Origin: Candidatus Falkowbacteria bacterium
GTDB lineage: Bacteria > Patescibacteriota > Patescibacteriia > UBA11705 > JACRDX01
Reading direction: 5' to 3'
DNA: 64,000 nt
Assembly (NCBI GenBank): GCA_043798985.1
Contig: JAZDOE010000008.1
Coordinates: 2,332 to 66,331 of the forward strand
Positions 14,111 through 56,893 of the stretch are shown piece after piece (position 1 is the stretch's first letter; each line of letters begins with the position of its first letter). The position numbers were made by a program, and so were the translations under genes. The notes under the pieces were generated by a model, which saw only the letters and a program-made list of their open reading frames with translations, did not search any database and had not been told where the DNA came from.

Positions 14111-15847
14111 CTACATCATTTGTACTTCCTTTATATTTAATAATCGCAAACCTTTTGTCAATACGTCTTTAACGTTGTTGGATAAAAATAATCGCGCAGC
14201 CGCCAGCTCTGGGTTTTCGCCAATGACACGGCATTTTTGATAAAAATTGTTAAACAATTGTGACAAATCCAACAAATATTTGCACAAACCGCTTGGGTCT
14301 AACTCTATTTCGGCCTTTTTAACCGCGTCGTTAAACATTCCAATTTTCAAAGCCAATTCGCGCTCAATATTCTCAACCAGCAAATCCAATTTGCAATTCT
14401 TCTGCTTTAATTTAGCGGCAGATGCCTTTTCAAAAAGAGAGTTTATGCGCGCGATTGTATAAAGCACGTATGGGCCAGTATCGCCATCAAACGCAGTCGC
14501 CTTATCAATGTCAAAAACAATCACACTGTTATTTTCATATTTTAAAATCCAAAACTTTATTGCAGCCAACGCGAGTTTCGTTGAAACATCTTCAACTTGC
14601 CGCGTTGACCAATCTACATGCCGCGCGTTTGTTTCTGCTTTTGCTTTTTCCAAAACAGCGTTAAACAACGAATCAAATGAAACAACATTACCCTTTCGCG
14701 ACGCCATGGCGCCCTCTGGCAAAGTGACAAAATCATAGCTAACGTGCGCTTTTTCCTTTTTATCATAGCCTAGCAAGTCCAGCAACTTGAAAATTTGTTT
14801 TAAATACAATGACTGGCGGACATCAACTACGTAAATTGACTTGTCAATTTTATATTTTTCAAACTTTTTAATTCCCAATGGCAAATCTTTGGCGCCATAA
14901 AGAACATTACCGTCAGATTTTATCAAAACCAAAACATCCAAACCATATTCCTGCAAATCAGCTATTAACGCGCCTTCGCTCATTTTTACTTCTTTAATTT
15001 TTCCTTCCTTAACAATACGTGCTAACAATTTTCGCCCCTCTTTTTCCTCTGCGCTTTCCCAAAACCATTCGTCAAATTTATTGCCCAATATTCCATAAAT
15101 CTTATGAAAATCATCCATGCTCCATTTTTTTGTTTTTTTCCAAAGCGCTGTTGCTTTGCGCTCGCCAGCTTCCAAACGCTTTTGTACTTCAGCAATCTCA
15201 ACCATCAACTCTGGTTTTTCCGCCAACAAGTTAACAGCTTCAGAATAAACTTTTCCCAAATACTCCGCCTTATTTTTACCTTTTTCAATAATCAGCTTAG
15301 GATTATTTTTCTCCAAATACCATATACATTTTGCAACATGAACGCCTGTGTCGCCAATATAATTCGCAACAATCACCTTCTTTCCGGCTTCGCGCAAAAT
15401 ATTAACCACTGCCGCGCCAAGGCAGGCATTTCGCAAATGGCCGACATGAAATTCTTTGTGCGTGTTCGGCTGCGAATATTCAACCATAACCCTTTTACCA
15501 CCCGTAGAGACGAGATATATCTCGTCTCTACATTGCCTTGAACACAAAATTTGTTCAAGCAGCCATTTTCGCTTGAAAGTAAAATTCACATACGGCCCCA
15601 CAATCTTCAATTCCTCAATAAAATCTCCGCGCTTGTCATTTCGACCTCGCTTTAGCGAGGGAGAAATCCCTCGTAAAATTTCCGCCCCAACATCCATCGG
15701 AGACTTCTTCATCTTCTTCGCCAAATTAAAACACGGCAAAGCCAAATCACCCATTTTAATATCCGGCGGTGCGACAAAATCGCTTGCGCTGACATCAAAT
15801 CCCGCTTGTTGCAACAATTTTGCCAACTGTTCTTTAATTTTCTGCAT
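14111..15847 (-). CDS. argS: Arginyl-tRNA synthetase; the sequence carries two in-frame repeat insertions.
   Basis: HIGH-type motif EFHVGHLRNACLG and the DALR anticodon-binding C-terminus. Probable ATG start at 15847 (MQKIKEQ); the track ORF begins at a TTG at 15856. Confidence 0.9.
   Translation of the reverse strand: MQKIKEQLAKLLQQAGFDVSASDFVAPPDIKMGDLALPCFNLAKKMKKSPMDVGAEILRGISPSLKRGRNDKRGDFIEELKIVGPYVNFTFKRKWLLEQILCSRQCRDEIYLVSTGGKRVMVEYSQPNTHKEFHVGHLRNACLGAAVVNILREAGKKVIVANYIGDTGVHVAKCIWYLEKNNPKLIIEKGKNKAEYLGKVYSEAVNLLAEKPELMVEIAEVQKRLEAGERKATALWKKTKKWSMDDFHKIYGILGNKFDEWFWESAEEKEGRKLLARIVKEGKIKEVKMSEGALIADLQEYGLDVLVLIKSDGNVLYGAKDLPLGIKKFEKYKIDKSIYVVDVRQSLYLKQIFKLLDLLGYDKKEKAHVSYDFVTLPEGAMASRKGNVVSFDSLFNAVLEKAKAETNARHVDWSTRQVEDVSTKLALAAIKFWILKYENNSVIVFDIDKATAFDGDTGPYVLYTIARINSLFEKASAAKLKQKNCKLDLLVENIERELALKIGMFNDAVKKAEIELDPSGLCKYLLDLSQLFNNFYQKCRVIGENPELAAARLFLSNNVKDVLTKGLRLLNIKEVQMM
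15504..15531. repeat. Family B palindrome, copy B1 (GTAGAGACGAGATATATCTCGTCTCTAC), inside the argS CDS.
   Basis: Perfect 28-nt palindrome translated in frame as CRDEIYLVST. Related copies lie at 54489..54516 and 56058..56083. Confidence 0.65.
15645..15673. repeat. GC-rich double-hairpin segment (CCTCGCTTTAGCGAGG / CGAGGGAGAAATCCCTCG) inside the argS N-terminal region; probably another in-frame insertion.
   Basis: It encodes RGISPSLKRGRNDKRGD between the conserved ArgRS N-terminal blocks. Its GC content is far above the surrounding sequence. Confidence 0.35.
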
Positions 15848-17177: not shown

Positions 17178-20100
17178 TTACATTAAACCTTTTGTTTGTT
17201 CAAGAATCTTTTTTAATTTTTCTTTTGCCTCTGCCAATCTTGTTTTCTCCGCGGCGACAACTTTTTCCGGCGCGTTTTTTATAAATTCAACATTGCTTAA
17301 CTTTCTTTCCAGCCCGCCAATATAATTTTCCAAATTATCTTTTTCCTTTTCCAACCGTTGCTTTTCTTTTCCAGAATCAATCAATCCAGCAAGCGGCATA
17401 TAAATTTCAATTTTTCCAATAATTGCACAGGCCGCTTGCTCTGGCTTTCTTGAAACAAAATTCAAATTCTCAACTTTAGCTAACGCCTTTATTATGTTTG
17501 CCGCGTCTGCCAACGCCTTGCCACCAATAATTTCAATGTCGATTTTTTTTGCCAAATCAACTTTATGTTCAGCTCGCAAATTTCTTATTTTCGTCACAAC
17601 TTCAACAATCGCGGAAAATTCTTTATCAACTTTTTCGTTAATCAACTTCTTATCAACTTTTGGCCATTCCGCAACTATTAAATTCTCGCGAATGCCCCCG
17701 CTTGTCATCCTGAGGCTCTCGAAGGATGACCATATTGCCTCCGTCACAAACGGCGCGAATGGATGCCACAACTTCAACAAATCTTTCAATATACTCAACA
17801 AAATCGCGTCTTTGTTTTTTTCAACTTTGCTGATTTCCAAATACCAATCAGCAAAATCATTCCATGTAAATTCGCGCAACAATTCGCCTGCCGCAGAAAA
17901 ATTATATTCATCTAAAAACTTCGTGACATCTCGTTTTAAACAATTCAACCGCGACAAAATCCATCGATCTGCTAACGTCGCGCCTGTCATTTCGAACCCG
18001 CCCACGGCGGGTGAGAAATCCCTTGTAGTCGTCAGCACGAACCTAGAAATATTCCACAATTTATTAACCAAATTTCTGCATCCCTCAACTTTTTCTTCAA
18101 AAAATCTAATGTCATTGCCCGGCGTTGTGCCAATTAACAATGCCAACCGCGACGCATCTGCTCCATATTTTTCAATCATGTCCAACGGATCAATTCCATT
18201 GCCGCGCGACTTGCTCATCTTTTTGCCATTTTTATCAAGCACCATTCCGTGCAAATAAACTTTTTCAAAAGGAATTTCGCCAAGTGCAAAAAAACTCATC
18301 ATCACCATTCGCGACACCCACAAAGTAATAATTTCATAACCAGTTTCCAACATTTGCGTCGGATGAAACCTTGCAAGATCGCCGGTTTTATTCAGCGTTG
18401 AAAAAGTCCACATTCCGGACGAAAACCAAGTGTCCAAAGAATCTTCATCTTGCTTCAAATTGAACGAACCGCACGAGCAAACTGCCGGCGGTAATTTTAT
18501 ACGCACATCTTTCGCGTTGTCCGGATATGTTAATTTATAAATCTCCAAATCGCTCAAATTTGTATTAAATCCTTTTACCACACGGGCAACATCGCCATGC
18601 GCCACCGCCAAAATTTTCTTGCCTGGATATTTTTTCGCGACTTCATCAAAAAAGGAAAAAACTCGTGATTTTAAACTATCAAATGACTCAATGCCTCGCG
18701 GAGAGTCATGATGCCACGCTTCAAAATCTTTTTTGCGAAACGCGCCCAATTCTTTGTCAGATTTTCCCTCAAACTCACCCATACCAACCTCGCGCAACCG
18801 TTTATCAAAAATTATTTTCTTGATTCCCAATTTGCCTGCCACGATTTTGGCGGTTTCCTGCGCTCTCTTAAAATCCGATGAAAAAATAATGTCTATTTTT
18901 TCTGCAAGCAACTCTTCCGCGACGGAAACAGATTGCGCTTTTCCTTTTTCTGTCAAACCATTTTCTTGATTTTTTATGTCAGAATTTAATTTGTCTTCAA
19001 CGTTGCTGCGCGATTCGCCATGCCGCAAAACGATAATTTCCGTATTTAATTTTTCAGTCACTTTAACTTCATTGCATTTTTCGCAATACCAAACAGGAAT
19101 TCTATGACCAAACCAAATCTGTCGGCTGATGCACCAATCCTGCATATTTTTCATCCAATCCAAATATCTCTTTTCAAATCTCTCCGGAATAAACTCAATC
19201 GCATGTTTTTCAGCGGCTTCAATCGCTTTTTCTTTCAAAGATTTGTTGCCTAATTTTTTAATCTTTTTATCAACCGCGACAAACCATTGTTTGCTTGGCA
19301 ATGGCTCAATCGCTGTGCCACAACGATAACAAATGGATAAATTATTATCTATTTCTTCTTCTTTTTCCAACAAATTCTGCGCGCGCAACCTTTCAACAAC
19401 CATTTGGCGCGCGCCCAAAACATCTTTTCCAGAATATTCTCCAAAATTTTCTTTAATTTTTCCATTCTCATCAATTACTTTTACAACTTCCAAATTGTTC
19501 GCCCGCGCCATTTGCCAATCAACAATGGAATGCGCGGGCGTTACGCCGAGCGCTCCGGTGCCGAAATTCATATCAACCTGCCAATCACCAATGATTTTAA
19601 TTTTAAGCGGCACACCGACAAAATCAACGCTAAATTCTTTGCCAATATATTTTTTATAGCGCTCGTCTTTCGGATTTACCGCGACAGCAGTGTCGCCAAG
19701 TTTTGTTTCCGGCCGAGTCGTGGCAATTGTAATCGGAAAATTTTTATTGTATTTAAAAGTATAAAGTTTTGCTTTTTGCTCCTGATATTCCACTTCGTCA
19801 TCGGCCAAAGTTGACTGGCATCGCGGGCACCAATTTACCACTCGTTCGCCACGATAAATCACACCTGAATCATACATATCCGCGAACATTTTTGCCACAG
19901 CCTTTATCCGCGGCTCATCTAATGTAAAAGCCTGCCGCGACCAATCCAAAGACGCGCCCATTTTCTTTATTTGATGCAAAATGGTTGTTTGCGTTTCTCT
20001 CAAAAACTCCCAAACTTTTTCCAAAAATTTTTCGCGCCCCAAATCATGCCGCGTCTTTTTTTCTTCTTTCCATAATTGCTTTTCCACAACATTTTGCGTG

Positions 20101-21680: not shown

Positions 21681-21729
21681 AACAATACTACGCATTATAC
21701 CAGATTTTTTTATAAAATAAAGAGCCATC

Positions 21730-21806
21730 TGGTGGTCGCACCTGGGCTCGAACCAGGGACCTTTCGGATGTGAACCGAACGCTCTAACCAGCTGAGCTAT
21801 GCGACC
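21730..21806 (-). tRNA. tRNA-Val (anticodon CAC), with CCA encoded.
   Basis: Reverse complement GGTCGCATAGCTCAGCTGGTTAGAGCGTTCGGTTCACATCCGAAAGGTCCCTGGTTCGAGCCCAGGTGCGACCACCA. Confidence 0.8.
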
Positions 21807-22038
21807 TTTGTAAATATTTTTCTACTCGTTTCCTTAAATATCCTCGGCCAAAACCCGTTTTTAATTGTCGCTCCCTTTTCATTGCATCGTCCTTCACTAA
21901 ACATACCTCGTAATACGCCATCTCTATGCTCCCCATCCTGATCGTAGTGTGCGTTTTGCCCGAGAGATGCTCTGCCAATCTCCTTTCTAAGTTCCCTGTA
22001 CATCCAACATAAAACCTATCTAAATCTTTGCTATACAT
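21784..22038 (-). CDS. Small GIY-YIG nuclease-domain protein (UPF0213 / YhbQ-like, about 84 aa). Its reading frame runs into the 5' part of tRNA-Val(CAC).
   Basis: From the internal ATG at 22038: MYSKDLDRFYVGCTGNLERRLAEHLSGKTHTTIRMGSIEMAYYEVCLVKDDAMKRERQLKTGFGRGYLRKRV, which shows the GIY..YIG..R..H..E fold hallmarks. The stop codon is the TAG in the tRNA D-loop (GGTTAG). Confidence 0.6.
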   Translation of the reverse strand: MYSKDLDRFYVGCTGNLERRLAEHLSGKTHTTIRMGSIEMAYYEVCLVKDDAMKRERQLKTGFGRGYLRKRVEKYLQRSHSSAG

Positions 22039-22045
22039 ACCACAT

Positions 22046-22162
22046 ATCTTTTGCGCTCCCCGCCCAAAGCCCGAAGGGCATTGTGGCGGGCCCGCCAGAC
22101 TGCGAAGCTGTCGGCGGGTAACCAGCCCCAAGGGGGCCCCTTCGGGGCTGAGCTATGCGACC
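22046..22162. mobile_element. GC-rich structured element followed by a 16-nt duplicate of the tRNA-Val(CAC) 5' end. It forms the terminal portion of a tRNA-linked insertion.
   Basis: CCCCGCCCAAAGCCCGAAGGGCATTGTGGCGGGCCCGCC...CCCCAAGGGGGCCCCTTCGGGGC, then GCTGAGCTATGCGACC, the reverse complement of tRNA nucleotides 1-16. The motif is homologous to 44692..44897 and 46596..46672. Confidence 0.45.
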
Positions 22163-22779
22163 TTTTTACCAACTAATTTTTCAATTTTCAAAACCAGTGT
22201 ATCAACCTCCTGCGGCCTACCACGAAAATCAGTTCCTTCAATCGGCACAACTAAAATTGGCGCGCGCTCAAAATTTTTCGCCCAATCATTATATTTATCA
22301 TTCAAACACGCAATATATTCTTTATTTTTTTGGATTTCCTGTTCCATCATTCTACCGCGTCGCCGTATCCTATCAAGCAATGTTTCAACCTCACCCTTTA
22401 AATAAATTATCACATCCGGCGACGGCAACAAATCGGCCGCGCTTTCATAAATATCCGAATAAACACGCCATTCGTCATCACTCATAAAACCATCTGCCCT
22501 CAAAAGCTTCGCAAAAACCTCGGCGTTTTCATAAATACTGCGATCTTGAATCACTGAATTTTTTGCCTCGGCAATATCATGATGATTCTTTATGCTCTGC
22601 GCGAGAAAGAACAATTGAGAATGAAACGCCCACGTTTTTTTATCCTGATAAAATCTTTCAAGATAAGGATTTTCAGCAAAAAAATCTTCCAGACAAGTTT
22701 TAAAATTTAATCTTGCTGCCAATGTTTTTGTCAGATTGGTTTTTCCAGACCCAATATTTCCGGCAATCGCGATAAACAT
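22153..22779 (-). CDS. Deoxynucleoside kinase (dAK/dGK/dCK family).
   Basis: MFIAIAGNIGSGKTNLTKTLA (P-loop) ...ENPYLERFYQD... ; 208 aa. Confidence 0.8.
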   Translation of the reverse strand: MFIAIAGNIGSGKTNLTKTLAARLNFKTCLEDFFAENPYLERFYQDKKTWAFHSQLFFLAQSIKNHHDIAEAKNSVIQDRSIYENAEVFAKLLRADGFMSDDEWRVYSDIYESAADLLPSPDVIIYLKGEVETLLDRIRRRGRMMEQEIQKNKEYIACLNDKYNDWAKNFERAPILVVPIEGTDFRGRPQEVDTLVLKIEKLVGKKVA

Positions 22780-22782
22780 ATT

Positions 22783-22960
22783 TTGGTGGGCACAGATGGA
22801 CTTGAACCATCGACCCCCGCCTTACCCGCCTGCCAGAGTCTGTGGGCGCAACTGGACTCGAACCAGTGACCCCCGCCTTATAAGGGCGATGCTCTAACCA
22901 GCTGAGCTATGCGCCCACAGACGGCGGGCAGGTAAGGGCGGTGCGGCTATGTGCCCATTA
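22783..22960 (-). other. Composite tRNA locus: a complete tRNA is embedded between the two halves of a tRNA-like sequence. The outer 5' acceptor strand GGGCACA and the outer 3' half with T-arm and CCA are complementary, and the flanks are imperfect inverted repeats.
   Basis: The reverse complement of 22783..22846 is ...GGCGGGGGTCGATGGTTCAAGTCCATCTGTGCCCACCA, a perfect T-arm plus acceptor plus CCA. The reverse complement of 22948..22954 is GGGCACA. Flanks CCGCCTTACCCGCCTGCC and GGCGGGCAGGTAAGGGCGG are near inverted repeats. Confidence 0.3.
22843..22916 (-). tRNA. tRNA with anticodon TAT, Ile-type and unusual in bacteria. It is the inner gene of the composite locus.
   Basis: Reverse complement GGGCGCATAGCTCAGCTGGTTAGAGCATCGCCCTTATAAGGCGGGGGTCACTGGTTCGAGTCCAGTTGCGCCCA. 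Anticodon stem TCGCC/GGCGG, loop CTTATAA. Confidence 0.55.
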
Positions 22961-44619: not shown

Positions 44620-44691
44620 TCCTCTCGGAAGGAATCGAACCTTCATCGCAGGTTCCGGAAACCTGTGTTCTATCCATTGAACTACGAGAGG
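44620..44691 (-). tRNA. tRNA-Arg (anticodon CCG).
   Basis: Reverse complement CCTCTCGTAGTTCAATGGATAGAACACAGGTTTCCGGAACCTGCGATGAAGGTTCGATTCCTTCCGAGAGGA. Confidence 0.75.
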
Positions 44692-44897
44692 GTAAATTGT
44701 GTTCCCCGCCCAAAGCCCAAATGGCATTGTGGCGGGCCCGCCTGCTTGCCGCCCTTGGCGGCTGGCGGCGGGTATCCATTGAACTACGAGAGGGTAAATT
44801 GTGTTCCCCGCCCAAAGCCCAAAGGGCATTGTGGCGGGCCCGCCTGCTTGCCGCCCTTGGCGGCTGGCGGCGGGTATCCATTGAACTACGGGAGGGG
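44692..44897. repeat. Two tandem 102-bp direct repeats, each made of a GC-rich structured element plus a 22-nt copy of the tRNA-Arg 5' end (acceptor and D-arm).
   Basis: TATCCATTGAACTACGAGAGGG occurs at about 44671, 44773 and 44875. The GC segment shares CCCCGCCCAAAGCCC-AA-GGCATTGTGGCGGGCCCGCC with 22046..22085. The four overlapping ORFs in the track are artefacts of the repeat. Confidence 0.7.
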
Positions 44898-46595: not shown

Positions 46596-46672
46596 CCCCG
46601 CCATCGGCGGGGCGAAGCGTGCGCGCTACCAACCCCAACGGGGCCCCTTCGGGGCCGCGCTAATCCCCGAAA
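46596..46672. repeat. Degenerate third copy of the tRNA-linked GC-rich element, upstream of tRNA-Pro(CGG).
   Basis: On the minus strand: CGGGGATTAGCGCGG (a degenerate tRNA-Pro 5' fragment) followed by CCCCGAAGGGGCCCCGTTGGGGTTGGTA. Compare GGTCGCATAGCTCAGC + CCCGAAGGGGCCCCCTTGGGGCTGGTTA at the tRNA-Val locus. Confidence 0.4.
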
Positions 46673-51400: not shown

Positions 51401-52465
51401 TTAAAATATTTTCTGTAAGAACCTATATATTCCCAATTGAACCGGTTGGTAAATTTTTTCATAAGTCCCGACATATTCAACAATTTCCGCAGTCGGCGAA
51501 AATCCCATTTTGAACTTCGTGAATCCCGCCCAGTTTTCCAGTCTTCCGGTTGCATCTTGCGGCGCGACACCCCAAAAATCATAAAACCAAAATCCGTCAC
51601 GTTTCGCGTCTTTTATTGCCTGCCATTGCAACAAATATGGAGCCATGGCATTGCGAAAATCATGGTCAGACGCGCCAAATAAATATGTTGCCGTGTTATC
51701 CCAAAAAATCACAATATTTGCCGCGATAATTTTTCCTTCCAACTTTGCAACATACAATTTGACAAATGGAACTTTCAGAAGTTCCTTAAAATAATCTTGT
51801 CCGTAAAATTTTATTTTCTGTCGCGCTTCTGTTTTTTTCTCAAGTTCGTAAAATTCTTTAAACATTAAATTGTCCACCACAATTTCAACCCCGCGTTTTT
51901 TTGCCACGCCAATGTTGTATCTGGTTTTTTCGTGCATTTGTTTTAACAAATTTTCTTCGTCCCCGCGCAAATCCAACATTAACGTATGTCTCGGTAAAAT
52001 ATCTTTTTCGCATTTTACAAACCCCATTTCATCAAAAATCCCACACCAACTCTTATCTTCTGAAAACGGGTCAATCTGAAACGCCATCGCCCCTTCCTGC
52101 TTCGCAATCTTATCTATTTCCTGCATGATCATTTTTGTGATTTCGGATTTAGAATTTGTTTCGGATTTCGGATTTCGAATTTCGGACTTTATAACTGGAC
52201 CTCGTGGAGAGTAAAGAATGCTTCGTCCCAATTTCGCTTTTGATTCAAACAAAAACACGACAGCGCACCATTCTTTATCACTTTGAGCGCTGTCGCCCTG
52301 AGCTTGTCGAGGGGTCACCTCAACAATCAATCTCCAAATTTTTTCATTTTGCGTATTCAAAAAATCACCCCATTCCCATGATTGAGTAAATCCGCCGGTA
52401 TCATTTTCTTTCACAAAATCATTCCAGCGCTCTTTATCCTCAATTGTTGCGTAGCTAATCGTCAT
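51401..52465 (-). CDS. FemAB-family protein (peptidoglycan interpeptide-bridge aminoacyltransferase-like). It carries two in-frame repeat insertions.
   Basis: FemAB-type sequence SWEWGDFLNTQ...ILYSPRGP... The inserted segments encode KSEIRNPKSETNSKSEITK (the atttcgg repeat, 52141..52200) and PRQAQGDSAQ (family A, 52292..52318). Confidence 0.55.
   Translation of the reverse strand: MTISYATIEDKERWNDFVKENDTGGFTQSWEWGDFLNTQNEKIWRLIVEVTPRQAQGDSAQSDKEWCAVVFLFESKAKLGRSILYSPRGPVIKSEIRNPKSETNSKSEITKMIMQEIDKIAKQEGAMAFQIDPFSEDKSWCGIFDEMGFVKCEKDILPRHTLMLDLRGDEENLLKQMHEKTRYNIGVAKKRGVEIVVDNLMFKEFYELEKKTEARQKIKFYGQDYFKELLKVPFVKLYVAKLEGKIIAANIVIFWDNTATYLFGASDHDFRNAMAPYLLQWQAIKDAKRDGFWFYDFWGVAPQDATGRLENWAGFTKFKMGFSPTAEIVEYVGTYEKIYQPVQLGIYRFLQKIF
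52292..52318. repeat. Family A palindromic element, copy A2 (variant GTCGCCCTGAGCTTGTCGAGGGGTCAC), inside the FemAB-like CDS.
   Basis: Same architecture as 17704..17730, with compensatory stem changes. Confidence 0.5.
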
Positions 52466-52588: not shown

Positions 52589-53665
52589 CTACTTGCCCGC
52601 CTCTACCGAGGCGGGCGAGAGCGCGACCAACCCACCCGCGAAACTGCCACGAGCACCATCAAGACTCTGACTGCCATAGAAGTAAGCGTCATCACCATCG
52701 GCAAAGCAAAAGAGCGACCAGCCGCGCCACGCAAGCGCTGCCATGTCATAGCACGGCGTCTTGTTGTCCCGCAGCAGTTCTGCCGCGTACATACTCATTG
52801 CTGCCAGCGTATCCAATCCGCCTGCAAGCATGAACATTTCCGGCAAGGTTTCCATCTGCTCTCTGTCTGCATTGATGGAATATCCCTGCAGCGCGGTCGG
52901 GAAGTAAATCCCCACCACCGGCTCCTTACTTGCCGCTTCCAACACTCTCTCATGTCTGCTTCCCGCCCAGATTGTCACTTCTCCGGCAAGCTGCCCCGTG
53001 ATATTGTTGTGGAAGGGACGGTTGGGAAACGCCTTCGTGTATGCTCTTGCCACTGTTGGCACAAGCACCTTGTCCAGCTTTGCCCCGTAGTTTGCCGCCG
53101 TCACGCCAAGCCCTGCCGGAATGCAGAACGGGTACCATGCGCCTTTCAGCACATTCTTAACCGTTTCATCTGCTTCAATCTTCTGCACTAAAGCGTTGAT
53201 GCGCAGTGCGAACTCTTCGGCAGACACAAACTCCAACTTCTCGTCGACAAATGCTTCTTTCGCAAGCACCAATCTTTCGGCAAAGGACAACCGCTCTATC
53301 CGCGTCGGATAGTAACCGTAATTCGCGTCGCATACCGAGCTTCTCATTCCGGTCGGTGGGATTCTGCGGCCATTCTTGTCATAGACCAGCGTTGGCGTCG
53401 GCTCTATCACCATCTCGTTTGGCCCCATGAAAATCGCGTGCATTTCACCCGACAGCAAACAATCAACCACCGATTCCCCAAGCTTGTTCTCCAACAGCTC
53501 AAGATGCCCGAGCGTTCTCTGAGGATACTTGGCAGGATCTCCGGACCGCTTCATCTGCGTGAGCGTTGCCAGCACCGCATCTGCGCCACCGTGCAAAGCC
53601 ACGTAATCCACGATATCCGCGACCGTCAACTTCTTCCACCCGTCACAACTCATAGCATCCTCCAT
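52589..53665 (-). CDS. Conserved hypothetical protein, GC-rich, paralog 1 of a duplicated gene.
   Basis: 358 aa. The C-terminal 260 aa are about 85-90% identical to 54516..55466 (for example LEAASKEPVVGIYFPTALQGYSINADREQM, AAELLRDNKTPCYDMAALAWRGWSL). No family recognised. Confidence 0.5.
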   Translation of the reverse strand: MEDAMSCDGWKKLTVADIVDYVALHGGADAVLATLTQMKRSGDPAKYPQRTLGHLELLENKLGESVVDCLLSGEMHAIFMGPNEMVIEPTPTLVYDKNGRRIPPTGMRSSVCDANYGYYPTRIERLSFAERLVLAKEAFVDEKLEFVSAEEFALRINALVQKIEADETVKNVLKGAWYPFCIPAGLGVTAANYGAKLDKVLVPTVARAYTKAFPNRPFHNNITGQLAGEVTIWAGSRHERVLEAASKEPVVGIYFPTALQGYSINADREQMETLPEMFMLAGGLDTLAAMSMYAAELLRDNKTPCYDMAALAWRGWSLFCFADGDDAYFYGSQSLDGARGSFAGGLVALSPASVEAGK

Positions 53666-54401: not shown

Positions 54402-54488
54402 ACATACAAATAATACATCACAACCAATATTTTTTCAATCTTCTGAAATTAAAATAGGGAATGTTGTTTCAACATTCCCAAATTCTCC

Positions 54489-54516
54489 GTAGAGCCGAGA
54501 TATATCTCGGCTCTAC
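54489..54516. repeat. Family B palindrome, copy B2 (GTAGAGCCGAGATATATCTCGGCTCTAC), abutting the stop codon of paralog 2.
   Basis: Perfect palindrome; differs from B1 by a compensatory A/T to C/G change. Confidence 0.6.
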
Positions 54517-55466
54517 TACGCGAGGGCGACCAAACCGCCGGCGATATAGTCATAAGCACCCGCAAGACGCCGACCGTCACGGAAGAAGGCAGAAACATCA
54601 TAAGCATAGCAATCGAGCGACCAGCCGCGCCAAGCGAGCGCTGCCATGTCATAGCACGGCGTCTTGTTGTCGCGCAGCAGTTCTGCCGCGTACATACTCA
54701 TTGCGCACATGGTATCCAACCCACCTGCAAGCATGAACATTTCCGGCAAGGTTGCCATCTGCTCTCTGTCTGCATTGATGGAATATCCCTGCAGCGCGGT
54801 CGGGAAGTAAATCCCCACCACCGGCTCTTTGCTTGCCGCTTCCAGCACCCTCTCATGCCTGCTTCCCTGCCAAATCGTCACTTCTCCGGAAAGCTGACCG
54901 TTGAGATTGTTGTGGAAGGGACGATTGGGAAACGCCTTCGTGTATGCTCTTGCCACTGCCGACAAAAGCACCTTGTCCATCTTATCCCCGTAGTTTGCCG
55001 CCGTCACTCCGAGCCCTCCGGGGATGACGAACGGGTACCATGCGCCTTTCAGCACGTTCTTAATCGTTTCGTCCGCCTCAATCTTCATTACCAGCGCATT
55101 GATGCGCTCAAAAAACTGCTCAACGGACACGAACGTCAGCGACTTGTCATTGAACACCTCCTGCGCCAATTTCAGCTTCGCGCCAAACGGCAACTGCTCA
55201 AGTCGCGTCGGGCAGTAACCATAGTTCGCGTCGCACACCGAACTTTTCATCCCCTGCGGCGGGATTCTGCGCCCGTTCTTGTCATAGACCAGCGTCGGCG
55301 TCGGCTCTATCACCACCTCATGCGTCTTGTCACCCTGAGGCTCTCGAAGGGCGACCACTCTGACCGTCAGCTCGCCGTTCGCAATTTTGCGCGCAATTTC
55401 CGTGCCACCGAGACGATTCAACAATGCTTCGTCCTCATTGCGCATCCAGTCACCATACTTTCCCAT
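54516..55466 (-). CDS. Conserved hypothetical protein, GC-rich, paralog 2; its N-terminus contains a family A palindrome insertion.
   Basis: 316 aa; VVALREPQGDKTHEV is encoded by 55329..55355. Confidence 0.5.
   Translation of the reverse strand: MGKYGDWMRNEDEALLNRLGGTEIARKIANGELTVRVVALREPQGDKTHEVVIEPTPTLVYDKNGRRIPPQGMKSSVCDANYGYCPTRLEQLPFGAKLKLAQEVFNDKSLTFVSVEQFFERINALVMKIEADETIKNVLKGAWYPFVIPGGLGVTAANYGDKMDKVLLSAVARAYTKAFPNRPFHNNLNGQLSGEVTIWQGSRHERVLEAASKEPVVGIYFPTALQGYSINADREQMATLPEMFMLAGGLDTMCAMSMYAAELLRDNKTPCYDMAALAWRGWSLDCYAYDVSAFFRDGRRLAGAYDYIAGGLVALA
55329..55355. repeat. Family A palindromic element, copy A3 (GTCACCCTGAGGCTCTCGAAGGGCGAC).
   Basis: In-frame within paralog 2. Confidence 0.55.
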
Positions 55467-55624: not shown

Positions 55625-56893
55625 TTACACAATTTTCCTGCGCAACAATGTCATTTCCGGAACATTTTTATTTATTTCCAAATAAATTTCCTGCTTTTGC
55701 CCACCATGTGCTTCTTTTATCCGTTTCATATCTTTATCAAAAATCTTTGTAATTTTTTGTTTAAAAACTTTACCCACTGGTGGTACGAACTCAATCTCAT
55801 CACCCACAAAAATCTGATTATGCACCAAAACTTTAATTATTCGCAGATTAGTAACATTCGAATGATTCGTAGCTTCGTAGCCACCAACAACTTCGCCGCA
55901 AAACTCCCATTCGCACGTTTCATGGCTCGCGTCTGTTTTTTGCCCTTGCCACGCCGAAGCTCCGCGAAGGCGGGCGCATTTTTCCTTTCCAAATAAAAAT
56001 CCTGTTGTAAATCCGCGGTTCTGATATTTTTTTAATTCTTTAATATAATATTTATCCAGAGACGAGACATGCCTCGTCTCTACAAGAGAATCAATTGCCG
56101 CGCGATAAACTTTTGTCACGCCGGCAACATAATAAATACTTTTTGACCGGCCCTCAATTTTAAACGACGAAATGCCGGCTTTTGCCAAATCTCTCAAATA
56201 TTCAACCAAACACAAATCTTTTGAATTCATAATATAACTCCCGCTATCATCCTCTTCAATCAACAACACTCTGTCATGCTGAGGCTCTCGAAGCATCTTA
56301 TAACTCCATCTGCATGGCTGCGTGCAATCACCGAGATTTGCGCTTCGTTTTGTAAAAAACTGCGACAACAAACAACGGCCAGAATATGACATGCACATTG
56401 CGCCATGGACAAAACATTCCAGCTCAACTTTTGGCGCGGCTTTGTGGATTTTTTTAATTTCTTCCAGCGTGGTCTCGCGCGCCAAAATGACGCGCGAGAC
56501 ACCTTGCCGCGCCCAAAATTTCGCAGACTCTGAATTTATACAATTTGCTTGCGTTGAAAGATGGATATTCGCTTTTGGCCAGATCTTTTTTATTAAAACC
56601 AACACACCCGGATCAGAAACAACTAAAGCATCGGGTTTTACTGTCCGCAACCATTTAATATGTTCTGCCAATTTTGCGAAATGTTTTTCACGCGGAAAAA
56701 TGTTCAAAGTTATGTAGACTTTTTTATTGCGCGAGCGCGCGAAGTCAATTCCTTGATGCAATGTTTTTAAATTAAAATCATTCACTCGCGCGCGCAAAGA
56801 AAAATCAGGGATGCCGCAGTAAACCACGTCAGCCCCAAATTCAATCGCGTATTTTAATTTTTTCAAACTCCCTGCTGGTGAAATCAGCTCCAT
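55625..56893 (-). CDS. Peptidase U32 family protein (PrtC / RlhA-like). It carries at least four in-frame repeat insertions.
   Basis: MELISPAGSLKKLKYAIEFGADVVYCGIPDFSLRARVNDFNLKTLHQGIDFARSRNKKVYITLN is canonical U32. Insertions: C2 at 55840..55883 (TNHSNVTNLRIIK), D2 at 55949..55976 (ARLRGASAWQG), B3 at 56058..56083 (ETRHVSSL) and A4 at 56273..56297 (MLREPQHD). Confidence 0.7.
   Translation of the reverse strand: MELISPAGSLKKLKYAIEFGADVVYCGIPDFSLRARVNDFNLKTLHQGIDFARSRNKKVYITLNIFPREKHFAKLAEHIKWLRTVKPDALVVSDPGVLVLIKKIWPKANIHLSTQANCINSESAKFWARQGVSRVILARETTLEEIKKIHKAAPKVELECFVHGAMCMSYSGRCLLSQFFTKRSANLGDCTQPCRWSYKMLREPQHDRVLLIEEDDSGSYIMNSKDLCLVEYLRDLAKAGISSFKIEGRSKSIYYVAGVTKVYRAAIDSLVETRHVSSLDKYYIKELKKYQNRGFTTGFLFGKEKCARLRGASAWQGQKTDASHETCEWEFCGEVVGGYEATNHSNVTNLRIIKVLVHNQIFVGDEIEFVPPVGKVFKQKITKIFDKDMKRIKEAHGGQKQEIYLEINKNVPEMTLLRRKIV
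55840..55883. repeat. Copy C2 of the 44-nt repeat, in frame inside the U32 CDS.
   Basis: TTCGCAGATTAGTAACATTCGAATGATTCGTAGCTTCGTAGCCA; compare C1 at 12531..12574. Confidence 0.6.
55949..55976. repeat. Family D GC hairpin, copy D2 (CCACGCCGAAGCTCCGCGAAGGCGGGCG).
   Basis: Shares GCCGAAGC...CGAAGGC with 58059..58086 in ileS. Confidence 0.45.
56058..56083. repeat. Family B palindrome, copy B3 (AGAGACGAGACATGCCTCGTCTCTAC variant).
   Basis: Same arms as B1 with a different central loop (ACATGC versus ATATAT). Confidence 0.5.
56273..56297. repeat. Family A palindromic element, copy A4 (GTCATGCTGAGGCTCTCGAAGCATC).
   Basis: The central CTGAGGCTCTCGAAG is conserved; the stem is changed compensatorily (ATGC/GCAT). 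Confidence 0.5.

Follow-up and report, generated by a model that had tools for sequence, protein, structure and literature searches.

A 64,000-nt stretch of the Candidatus Falkowbacteria contig JAZDOE010000008.1 (positions 2,332 to 66,331; hereafter the window, with an overall GC content of 41.5%) carries at its tRNA-Val(CAC) gene a GC-rich double hairpin, here called H, which interrupts a displaced 5' fragment of the tRNA, and the remains of a gene for a small GIY-YIG nuclease, which lie between this fragment and an intact copy of the tRNA. The best reading of this locus is that it is a decaying copy of a family of small mobile DNA elements of Patescibacteria, some copies of which occur in Elusimicrobiota. 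A unit of H and nuclease gene occupies a particular site within tRNA genes, is carried by some close relatives and missing from others, and lies in unrelated genomic contexts, always with an intact tRNA beside the split one. We posit that it is a nuclease-driven mobile element, composed of H and the nuclease gene, that targets tRNA-gene loops and spreads by break-induced copying, a reading to which we give a probability of about 0.6. An initial annotation of the window had proposed a self-contained, tRNA-targeting GIY-YIG element here, with the partial tRNA duplication as the footprint of integration or homing; the underlying observation is confirmed and the proposal is supported, as the arrangement was found to vary between relatives, to recur at other tRNA genes and to encode a protein with matches to the GIY-YIG fold.

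Structure of the element copy at tRNA-Val(CAC)

The intact tRNA-Val(CAC) gene lies at 21730-21806 on the minus strand (ARAGORN; Rfam 68.5 bits). Read along the same strand from position 22162, the order is ggtcgcatagctcag, ccccgaaggggcccccttgggg, ctggtta, H, gagcg, an 8-nt spacer, the GIY-YIG frame and the intact tRNA. The 16-nt duplicate of the tRNA 5' end reported initially is present, GGTCGCATAGCTCAGC at 22162-22147 being an exact match to the first 16 nt of the intact gene, but it is only the start of a longer duplicate of nt 1-27 that is broken into three pieces by two GC-rich inserts. The first piece, ggtcgcatagctcag (22162-22148, minus strand; tRNA nt 1-15), is an exact copy of 21806-21792, and the open reading frame (ORF) for a deoxynucleoside kinase (dNK) stops at a TAG within it. 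It is followed by a GC-rich, 22-nt mini double hairpin (ccccgaaggggcccccttgggg, 22147-22126, minus strand) in the D-loop of the displaced fragment, by ctggtta (22125-22119, minus strand), which in comparison with 21791-21785 represents the D-loop up to A21, and by the 60-nt H itself (22118-22059, recognised by covariance model R1 and left without strand assignment), in which hairpins Hp1 and Hp2 are each of the form CCCGCC..GGCGGG and meet at a central GGGCCC. The displaced copy ends with the piece termed B', gagcg (22058-22054, minus strand), assigned by sequence comparison to tRNA nt 22-26 in the 3' strand of the D-stem; the short B' pieces at other loci are likewise tRNA-specific (gaacaca at tRNA-Arg, aagc at tRNA-His, tcacg at tRNA-Asp). 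The layout initially described for a GC-rich GIY-YIG element at the D-loop thus stands, with the corrections that the main insertion point is A21|G22, the junction of the D-loop with the 3' strand of the D-stem, rather than nt 16, and that the copy has decayed. Only eight places in the window reach 80% GC or more over 24 nt, five of them in the three loci that adjoin tRNAs, and the GC-rich blocks at these tRNA-adjacent loci are more than chance.

The surviving frame of the nuclease gene (22038-21784, 84 aa) matches PF01541 with 48.9 bits against a cut-off of 22.6 (E = 8e-13), and profile matches in the PDB and a modelled fold agree with this, bearing out the earlier assignment to the GIY-YIG nucleases. 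As had also been noted, the frame terminates at the TAG of GGTTAG in the D-loop of the intact tRNA-Val(CAC); the first 22 nt of the tRNA encode the last eight codons of the ORF (seven residues and the stop). Judged by the family alignment, the PF01541 match and a deletion relative to its closest homologue (L001; loci from other assemblies are given as L numbers throughout), the gene as a whole (21784-22045, minus strand) is a pseudogene of a true member of a Slx1/UPF0213-type GIY-YIG family, and the element copy is correspondingly a relic. Ten nucleotides have been lost in comparison with L001 (ATGTGGTATGT[TTATGCATTG]TATAG). The start region, which reads ATGTGGTATGTTTATGCATTGTATAGT (MWYVYALYS) in L001, is 10 nt shorter in the window (ATGTGGTATGTATAGC), and the conserved start reads MWYV* because of this deletion. 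The ancestral ATG (22045-22043) accordingly runs into a TAG at 22033-22031, and through deletion and frameshift the 84-aa frame is left without the first strand and its GIY tyrosine. A 115-aa, TTG-initiated ORF in the window (22131-21784) is an artefact of upstream extension of a kind also seen elsewhere: the automatic gene calls P0001, P0011, P0013, P0016, P0025 and P0027 run upstream through H and carry spurious N-termini rich in Gly, Arg and Ala, for example ..GFGRGAQ...

The 28 closest homologues of the window nuclease belong to a family of 85-90-aa proteins that carry PF01541 and no other Pfam domain, with an invariant C-terminal motif (RERQLKTGFGRGYLxRRL) and the invariant residues Y6, Y17, G19, R27, H31, Y49, E51, R62 and E63. 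Searched against the PDB, the family profile matched UPF0213 structures 1zg2 (E = 4e-8) and 1ywl (4e-5) and Slx1 (2e-3), and gave no match to I-TevI or UvrC; in NCBIfam there were only sub-threshold matches to group I intron endonucleases or UvrC. An AlphaFold2 model of P0002 (predicted local distance difference test score 92.7) has strands at 3-10, 15-21 and 46-53 plus helices, and its query-normalised Foldseek TM-scores were 0.60-0.64 for Slx1, 0.50 for I-TevI and 0.48 for UvrC, the best superpositions being on 1zg2 and Slx1 domains at 25-29% identity. Profile and model together indicate a minimal stand-alone GIY-YIG domain of Slx1/UPF0213 type, nearer to that group than to the branch of homing endonucleases and UvrC. 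Eukaryotic Slx1 is a structure-specific nuclease that cuts branched or stem-loop DNA, and by analogy such an activity would fit a partner site that forms hairpins or cruciforms. Both 1zg2 and 1ywl fall in the Slx1 branch, whose prokaryotic members are minimal stand-alone domains (Dunin-Horkawicz et al., PMC1564403). A second, more distant GIY-YIG subfamily was seen in L206 (3330-3729), with the C-terminal motif YFKTAAGRRYLK and a single, different GC hairpin, at the same D-loop position of tRNA-Val(GAC). Since this subfamily and its different hairpin occupy the same D-loop position, they suggest a broader superfamily of elements made up of hairpin, GIY-YIG gene and tRNA.

An alignment of 50 H copies comprises two adjacent hairpins, each closed by CCCGCC/GGCGGG. 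Pairing is retained in 94.5% of cells, and 121 double-sided changes were counted, compared with 31.8 ± 5 in shuffled alignments (none of 500 reached the observed value) and 9-21 with slid partners; the pairs that vary are the inner ones, which the search pattern had left free. Covariation, suggested at the outset as a check on the GC-rich segment, is therefore strong in H, and the fold z-score at 22059-22118 is -3.3. The two hairpins mirror each other about the central GGGCCC, Hp1 having a 3' bulge and an A.A mismatch and Hp2 a 5' bulge and a T.T mismatch. Model R1 gave the copy at 22059-22118 a minus-strand score of 75.5 bits and a plus-strand score of 71.1 bits, and although it is a one-strand covariance model, every H copy scored almost equally on both strands; the tRNA model, by contrast, gave no score on the reverse strand of a tRNA gene. 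Because H is both strand-symmetric and constrained in its pairing, it points to a DNA-level pseudo-dyad, forming hairpins or a cruciform, and not to an RNA structure. Rfam returned only tRNAs, whether at gathering thresholds across the window, at E <= 10 on 21700-22200 or at six H loci, and a ribozyme similar to that of hepatitis delta virus, a hairpin ribozyme and a group I intron were ruled out on that result.

H also occurs in frame within two intact protein genes, a 297-aa prepilin-peptidase-like gene (L104, 4316-4384) and a gene for a 241-aa protein (L119, 6588-6662), in both with TA..GAGC flanks and contributing about 25 additional residues; given these insertions, H by itself acts as a small mobile element. 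Taking H out restores a tRNA in no more than a few of about 57 copies (L031, L040, L086), two of which, L031 and L086, have beside the H-bearing tRNA an intact one with the same anticodon.

Distribution, insertion site and mobility

H was found three times in the window; genome loci yielded about 60 copies and metagenome loci about 85. The genome set derives from a degenerate pattern search with 117 matches, from which about 72 chance matches in high-GC actinomycetes were removed by composition; about 57 copies in low-GC genomes were recorded with this pattern. Going by record titles, hosts labelled among L009-L088 include Patescibacteria, Falkowbacteria, Saccharibacteria, Uhrbacteria and Staskawiczbacteria, some being labelled Gammaproteobacteria, and two hosts are Elusimicrobiota with the element at tRNA-Glu. 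The metagenome set is independent of the H pattern, having been ascertained by protein similarity alone (280 relatives in JGI metagenomes, with counts referring to the best 80 loci). H lies directly upstream of the ORF, within about 100 nt, in 66 of these 80 loci, and in 72 of them a tRNA starts between -30 and +80 nt from the nuclease stop, which is typically a TAG at tRNA positions 8-10. A second H follows directly after the tRNA in 15 of the 80, the paired copies being identical in L132, L134, L139 and L197.

The arrangement itself, namely a 5' tRNA fragment, the double hairpin, a 4-10-nt continuation of the tRNA, the ORF and an intact tRNA, was found in six of seven homologue contexts, at tRNA-Val(GAC), His(GTG), Asp(GTC), Gly(CCC), Gly(TCC) and a tRNA that is truncated at a contig end, with neighbouring genes that differ among the six. 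Overall it was present at more than 15 tRNA species on unrelated contigs. The element is thus not confined to a single copy, since further copies exist both in the window and at many tRNAs in unrelated contexts. In 22 of 58 loci the stretch preceding H matches the adjacent tRNA exactly over at least 18 nt, the rest differing or being unplaceable by this exact-match test.

Three forms of the element were recognised. The left form, that of the window, has the order A-H-B'-[ORF]-tRNA, where A is the 5' tRNA fragment; the right form has the order tRNA-spacer-a'-H-B and repeats the whole 3' part of the tRNA after H (L018, L055, L070, L120 and others); and the complete form has both sides, in the order outerA - [a'-H-B'] - nuclease - intact tRNA - [a'-H-B'] - outerB (L035, L106, L132, L134, L147, L160, L197 and others). 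The two H copies of the complete form differ little or not at all, each being bounded by the same tRNA bases (a' of 5-18 nt, B' of 3-16 nt), and the outer flanks, when joined, rebuild a full outer tRNA in L147, L160 and L197. Outer and inner tRNA have the same anticodon and different sequences in L147 and L035. The complete form is a tRNA gene, with or without a nuclease gene, nested in a split tRNA gene. A duplicated 5' end, which had been called unusual, is therefore what the window displays, but forms that duplicate the 3' part and complete, nested forms exist as well.

The position of insertion is narrowly defined. Of the 49 left-form copies that could be placed on the adjacent tRNA, 45 are inserted exactly where the D-loop passes into the 3' strand of the D-stem (A21|R22), as at the junctions GGTTA|GAGC, GGATA|GAAC, GGTTA|AAGC and TGGCG|GAGC, and this holds for D-loops of any length across more than 12 tRNA species, including Val, Ile, Thr, Arg, Ala, His, Phe and Met. 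Other sites are the anticodon loop (L005, L197, L199, L205) and the T-loop (L035, L106). A lineage at tRNA-Gly inserts in the anticodon loop (..CTTCC|CAAG..), where H can be inverted relative to the tRNA. Units that lack an ORF appear to be internal deletions, because an ORF-less copy in L035 retains the 3' end of the ORF (its last codons, aaattattt).

Some copies are more intricate. Additional double hairpins of the H type occupy the T-loop (GGTTC|..|GAATC) of displaced tRNA 3' fragments in L035 (4549-4614) and L106 (308-371), and dead tRNA copies therefore gather several hairpin insertions. Serial nesting was seen in L031 (7600-8000), where an ORF is followed by an H-bearing chimeric tRNA and then by an intact tRNA. 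Inverted repeats of 10-13 bp flank the inner tRNA in complete-form lineages at tRNA-Ile(GAT) and tRNA-Lys (L134, L160, L144, L132); in these lineages the last ORF codons are complementary to the tRNA trailer and extend the acceptor stem, a feature that other lineages do not have.

Evidence for mobility comes from close relatives of the window. Its dNK is 100% identical, by homology search, to a protein annotated from a Candidatus Falkowbacteria metagenome-assembled genome (MAG), and the order RecO, tRNA-Ile(TAT), dNK, tRNA-Val(CAC), tRNA-Leu(CAA), tRNA-Val(GAC) is conserved in relatives. A search for empty sites, proposed with the initial annotation, found tRNA-Val(CAC) without insert in L206, L207 and L208, whose dNK is 86%, 87% and 66% identical to that of the window and runs straight into an uninterrupted tRNA, so that the arrangement is not fixed in synteny. 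The portion of tRNA-Val(CAC) that L207 contains before its contig end (about 43 nt) is identical to that of the window. Conversely, L206 has a hairpin and a GIY-YIG gene at tRNA-Val(GAC), which is an empty site in the window. In L208, genes for archease and the RNA ligase RtcB separate RecO from tRNA-Ile(TAT) (381-2222) and adjoin the tRNA cluster in which other genomes carry such elements.

Comparison of copies points in the same direction. ORF cores 76-84% identical at the DNA level lie within flanks of no detectable similarity, sometimes at different tRNA species. The elements of L184 at tRNA-Val(CAC) and L194 at tRNA-Ile(TAT) encode proteins 92% identical; their homology covers H and all that follows up to the ORF end, with fragment and tRNA belonging to the local gene. 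In other pairs the flanks have diverged about as much as the ORF, and copies therefore persist vertically too. Nearest-neighbour ORFs were associated with the same anticodon in 20 of 56 cases, against 5.5 ± 2.5 expected; a strict model in which a cargo tRNA is co-inherited with the ORF is only partly supported by this, given the 92% identical ORFs at Val and Ile with local fragments. Simple local tandem duplication was rejected in view of the empty sites, the unrelated contexts and the differing inner and outer tRNAs.

Mechanism, alternative explanations and known systems

What the nuclease cuts, and whether copying proceeds by homing-like repair or by recombination at H, we infer as follows. 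An active element of about 0.35-0.5 kb, consisting of the roughly 60-bp pseudo-palindromic H and a nuclease gene of 85-90 codons, would enter the DNA of a tRNA-gene loop. A whole tRNA gene would be carried or duplicated with the element in its complete form, leaving the resident tRNA split and a working copy inside. The nuclease may break or nick the DNA of the tRNA gene, or else H in an extruded hairpin or cruciform state, and repair would then copy the element from a template that carries it, using homology in the conserved tRNA halves and in H. Recombination between the repeated tRNA parts, or early annealing in repair synthesis, could then trim the complete form to the left and right forms, and internal deletions would yield ORF-less units resembling miniature inverted-repeat transposable elements (MITEs), such as the two before tRNA-Arg in the window.

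Several points weigh against break-induced copying by a homing-type nuclease. Classical homing expects the insertion to destroy the target, and the split copy is destroyed, yet an intact tRNA with the same D-loop often adjoins the element (window, L001, L003, L134, L160), which leaves self-cleavage unaccounted for; in L147 the inner tRNA has a D-loop that differs from the outer one. The nuclease is a catalytic domain only, with no DNA-binding domain, which makes sequence-specific recognition less than obvious, and homing alone leaves H without a role. The repeats that flank the cargo (a' of 5-18 nt, H, and B' of 3-16 nt) are more suggestive of recombination at H, or of staggered cutting around H in an extruded state, and closely related ORFs at different tRNAs with locally matching 5' fragments need a step of local-tRNA duplication that is not derivable from simple repair synthesis. 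The pattern behind the genome H set also fixed the outer stems and the TA/RA flanks, and all data come from assemblies, mostly MAGs. Target-site duplication by a staggered cut, repair synthesis with template switching and ends-in recombination were each set aside as a sole route, as each needs an extra assumption to produce all three forms. Tentatively, the family could be a new class of prokaryotic mobile element that is guided by structure and not by sequence, in which a minimal Slx1-like nuclease would act on the tRNA gene extruded as a cloverleaf and on the strand-symmetric H as a cruciform, cutting at A21|G22. The element would install a replacement tRNA, so that the host, with its own tRNA gene split, would depend on that copy and the nesting of one tRNA in another would act as an addiction.

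H might instead be an att-like recombination site, with a circle of a'-H-B'-nuclease-tRNA recombining H by H with an H-bearing tRNA gene in a Campbell-type event. The crossover, by homologous or nuclease-stimulated recombination, would yield two H copies flanking the cargo, and excision would leave a dead H-bearing tRNA and a host dependent on the tRNA of the element. Direct repeats of H with variable tRNA flanks are indeed what a single crossover with such a circle predicts, copies of H that form a pair hardly differ, if at all, unlike unpaired ones within a genome, the conserved, GC-rich 60 bp are long enough for recombination, and insertions of H outside tRNAs bring TA..GAGC flanks with them. 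We nevertheless consider exchange at H unlikely, given that full tRNAs with a lone H, its required targets, are very scarce (L040, and L031, where a spare tRNA is present), being presumably lethal where tRNAs are single-copy, that GIY-YIG domains are not known recombinases, that no circle junction was observed and that the first arrival of H at position 21/22 is left unexplained. An integrase acting at an att site was rejected: no integrase or recombinase lies in or beside any copy, the neighbours are housekeeping genes, and the 0.35-0.5 kb of the element hold a single 85-aa ORF.

Two alternatives remain. In one, an independent hairpin of MITE type, a free-standing GIY-YIG homing gene and ordinary local tRNA duplications merely co-accumulate at tRNA clusters. 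H does occur without an ORF (about 40 of 57 copies) and outside tRNAs, tRNA-in-tRNA arrangements exist with neither H nor ORF (window 22786-22955; L207), and L206 combines a different GIY-YIG subfamily with a different single hairpin. Such independence is highly improbable beside the protein-chosen ORFs, 66 of 80 of which have H at most about 100 nt upstream and 72 of 80 an abutting tRNA, beside an H-to-ORF junction conserved between elements at different tRNAs, the same insertion position in 45 of 49 copies, and ORF remnants in ORF-less units. A role of H as a structured RNA within a transcript from the tRNA promoter, be it a processing signal, a stabiliser or insulator of the nuclease mRNA or an intron-like insert removed from the tRNA, with the DNA arrangement as by-product, would account for covariation that keeps intra-strand pairing and for the placing of H between the resident tRNA promoter and the ORF in 66 of 80 loci; Patescibacteria are, moreover, known to have tRNA introns, for example group I introns at position 35/36 (PMC13011429), and RtcB and archease are encoded beside the corresponding tRNA cluster of L208. 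Such a role is scarcely probable: H scores alike on either strand, a symmetry for which an RNA would have no need, and it lies either way round with respect to the tRNA (L086, L010). Against it stand also the absence of any Rfam match including ribozymes and group I introns, H-bearing tRNA copies whose continuation beyond H ends after 4-16 nt and so could not be spliced into a tRNA, and the presence of H after tRNAs and inside protein-coding genes.

Among the nearest known counterparts is SegB of phage T4, a free-standing GIY-YIG homing endonuclease in a tRNA gene cluster (PMC2330249; see also PMC13096335). The target of SegB is a conserved tRNA-gene motif, the DNA of the T-psi-C stem-loop; many different tRNA genes are cut, and the enzyme promotes its own inheritance along with that of tRNA genes nearby (PMC2330249). 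Both systems place a GIY-YIG gene among tRNA genes and have a conserved tRNA-gene motif as target. SegB differs, however, in belonging to the I-TevI-like branch with a NUMOD3 DNA-binding region, whereas the family described here is an 86-aa catalytic domain of Slx1/UPF0213 type only; its target is the T arm and not D-loop position 21/22, and it has no hairpin repeat, split tRNA gene or partial tRNA duplication. The closest sequence and fold matches of the family, UPF0213 (YhbQ-type) proteins and the Slx1 of Slx1-Slx4, are regarded as host repair proteins and not as parts of mobile elements, and the family has its own motif, RERQLKTGFGRGYLxRRL.

Parallels also exist in mitochondria. In the mitochondrial DNA (mtDNA) of Allomyces macrogynus, Paquin, Laforest and Lang (1994/2000) reportedly described a mobile element in atp6 composed of the GIY-YIG ORF360 and a foreign 3' part of atp6, and the same mtDNAs are said to contain GC-rich double-hairpin elements (DHEs). 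The nuclease gene there enters an essential gene and brings or duplicates a part of it, so that an intact copy and a displaced fragment remain, and the DHEs are GC-rich double hairpins scattered in an AT-rich genome and suspected to be mobile. That system differs in being of a eukaryotic organelle, in its protein-coding target, its nuclease of homing-endonuclease type and its lack of any sequence relationship, and DHEs are not known to be integral terminal repeats of a nuclease element. Short multi-copy hairpin elements of bacteria include the Rickettsia palindromic elements (RPEs) and the repetitive extragenic palindromic sequences and bacterial interspersed mosaic elements (REP/BIME) associated with RAYT transposases. 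RPEs share with H the in-frame insertion in protein genes seen in L104 and L119, and non-autonomous copies outnumber those beside a protein gene, as in the present family. RPEs and REP/RAYT systems rely on other enzymes or on none known, REP/RAYT systems on an HUH/Y1 transposase, where the present elements have a GIY-YIG ORF, and unlike RPE and REP sequences H is a double hairpin with a pseudo-dyad and strong specificity for one tRNA-gene position.

Integrative elements that use tRNA genes as att sites likewise have a direct repeat of part of the tRNA flanking the insert and keep the tRNA intact. The present elements have no integrase, measure less than 0.5 kb and have a crossover point that falls inside the D-loop and not in the 3' half; the duplicated part can be the 5' one or the 3' one, and the complete form carries an entire second tRNA. 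Group I introns in tRNAs of Patescibacteria (PMC13011429) involve the same phylum and kind of host gene, and some of the elements lie at anticodon-loop position 35/36; no intron model matched here, however, the interrupted copy ends early and unspliced, and a second, intact tRNA keeps the function. The initial annotation regarded the element class as undescribed, and we too found no description of the arrangement of hairpin, nuclease and tRNA in open-access papers and bioRxiv preprints, an absence that is no proof of novelty. We place the family among nuclease-encoding selfish elements that target conserved genes, with a substantial chance that it represents a distinct, structure-guided class.

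Bacteria of the candidate phyla radiation have tiny genomes with mostly single-copy tRNA genes, and yet the element, widespread among these bacteria, splits such genes at one precise position, surviving by keeping or bringing an intact copy. If the preferred reading is true, it would be a compact (<0.5 kb), abundant and hitherto unnoticed kind of selfish element in bacteria and would give the enigmatic stand-alone nucleases of Slx1/UPF0213 type their first biological context. It would also account for tRNA pseudo-fragments in these lineages and possibly for the replacement of tRNA alleles by horizontal transfer, and GC-rich blocks beside tRNAs in such genomes should then be annotated with caution, as element scars and a source of spurious N-terminal extensions. 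On the same reading, a nuclease homing with a 60-bp site to a universally conserved tRNA position could be of practical use for targeted insertion.

Further loci in the window

The GC-rich motif of tRNA-Val(CAC) had been reported at two other tRNA loci of the window, of which one, 44692-44897, does contain H, twice, while the other, 46596-46672, has only the mini-hairpin. At the former, the H copies occupy 44807-44874 and 44705-44772 and belong to two 102-nt units, arranged in tandem and 99% identical to each other, each composed of tRNA-Arg nt 1-21, H, gaacaca (tRNA nt 22-28) and a short spacer, with the intact tRNA-Arg(CCG) downstream (44620-44691, minus strand; ARAGORN, Rfam). Neither unit has an ORF. 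The first (44773-44897, minus strand; repeat families D4, D5 and D15, model R1) is made up of A (44897-44875, one mismatch), H (44874-44807), B' gaacaca (44806-44800), a spacer and the start of the next unit, and the second (44692-44793, minus strand) of A (44793-44773), H (44772-44705), B' gaacaca (44704-44698) and the spacer attta.

The locus at 46596-46672 (minus strand) is a tRNA-Pro-like 5' pseudo-fragment upstream of tRNA-Pro(CGG), whose D-loop carries a mini double hairpin and whose anticodon loop carries a CCCCGCC-GAT-GGCGGGG hairpin. The locus was rejected as a third copy of H and is listed as related debris, since model R1 has no match there and it has in common with the tRNA-Val locus only the mini-hairpin GCCCCGAAGGGGCCCC(G/C)TTGGGG. 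Among all loci compared, this mini double hairpin (CCCCGAAGGGGCCCC) occurs only at 46633-46655 and 22126-22147; it could be a miniature of H or a footprint.

Close to the tRNA-Val locus, a degenerate outer tRNA-Ile (22786-22955, minus strand) encloses, within its anticodon loop, an intact tRNA-Ile(TAT) (22842-22916). The 5' part of the outer tRNA (about 22955-22930) has lost the D-arm, and its 3' part lies at 22826-22786. The inner tRNA is set between the complementary spacers cctgcccgccgtctgt and cagactctggcaggcgg, which extend its acceptor stem, and the arrangement has neither H nor ORF. The same nested tRNA-Ile is present in L207 (1790-1970), and a variant with GC mini-hairpins in L206 (2296-2378).

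Other short hairpin repeats of the window are unrelated to H. These families are the GTCATCCTGAGG..GAAGGATGAC type and the CCGTAGAGACGAGATATATCTCGTCTCTAC palindrome, at 17701-17732, 52289-52320, 55326-55357 and 56270-56301 and also at 15502-15531, 54487-54516 and 56054-56083; motifs similar to cgctcaggatgac were seen in L004 and L208. The window further contains a 300-nt direct repeat (52616-52915 and 54519-54818, 86% identical and 1.9 kb apart) and, between 48275 and 52182, several AT-rich repeat blocks of the TTCGnATTT type (repeat families D1, D2, D10 and D14).

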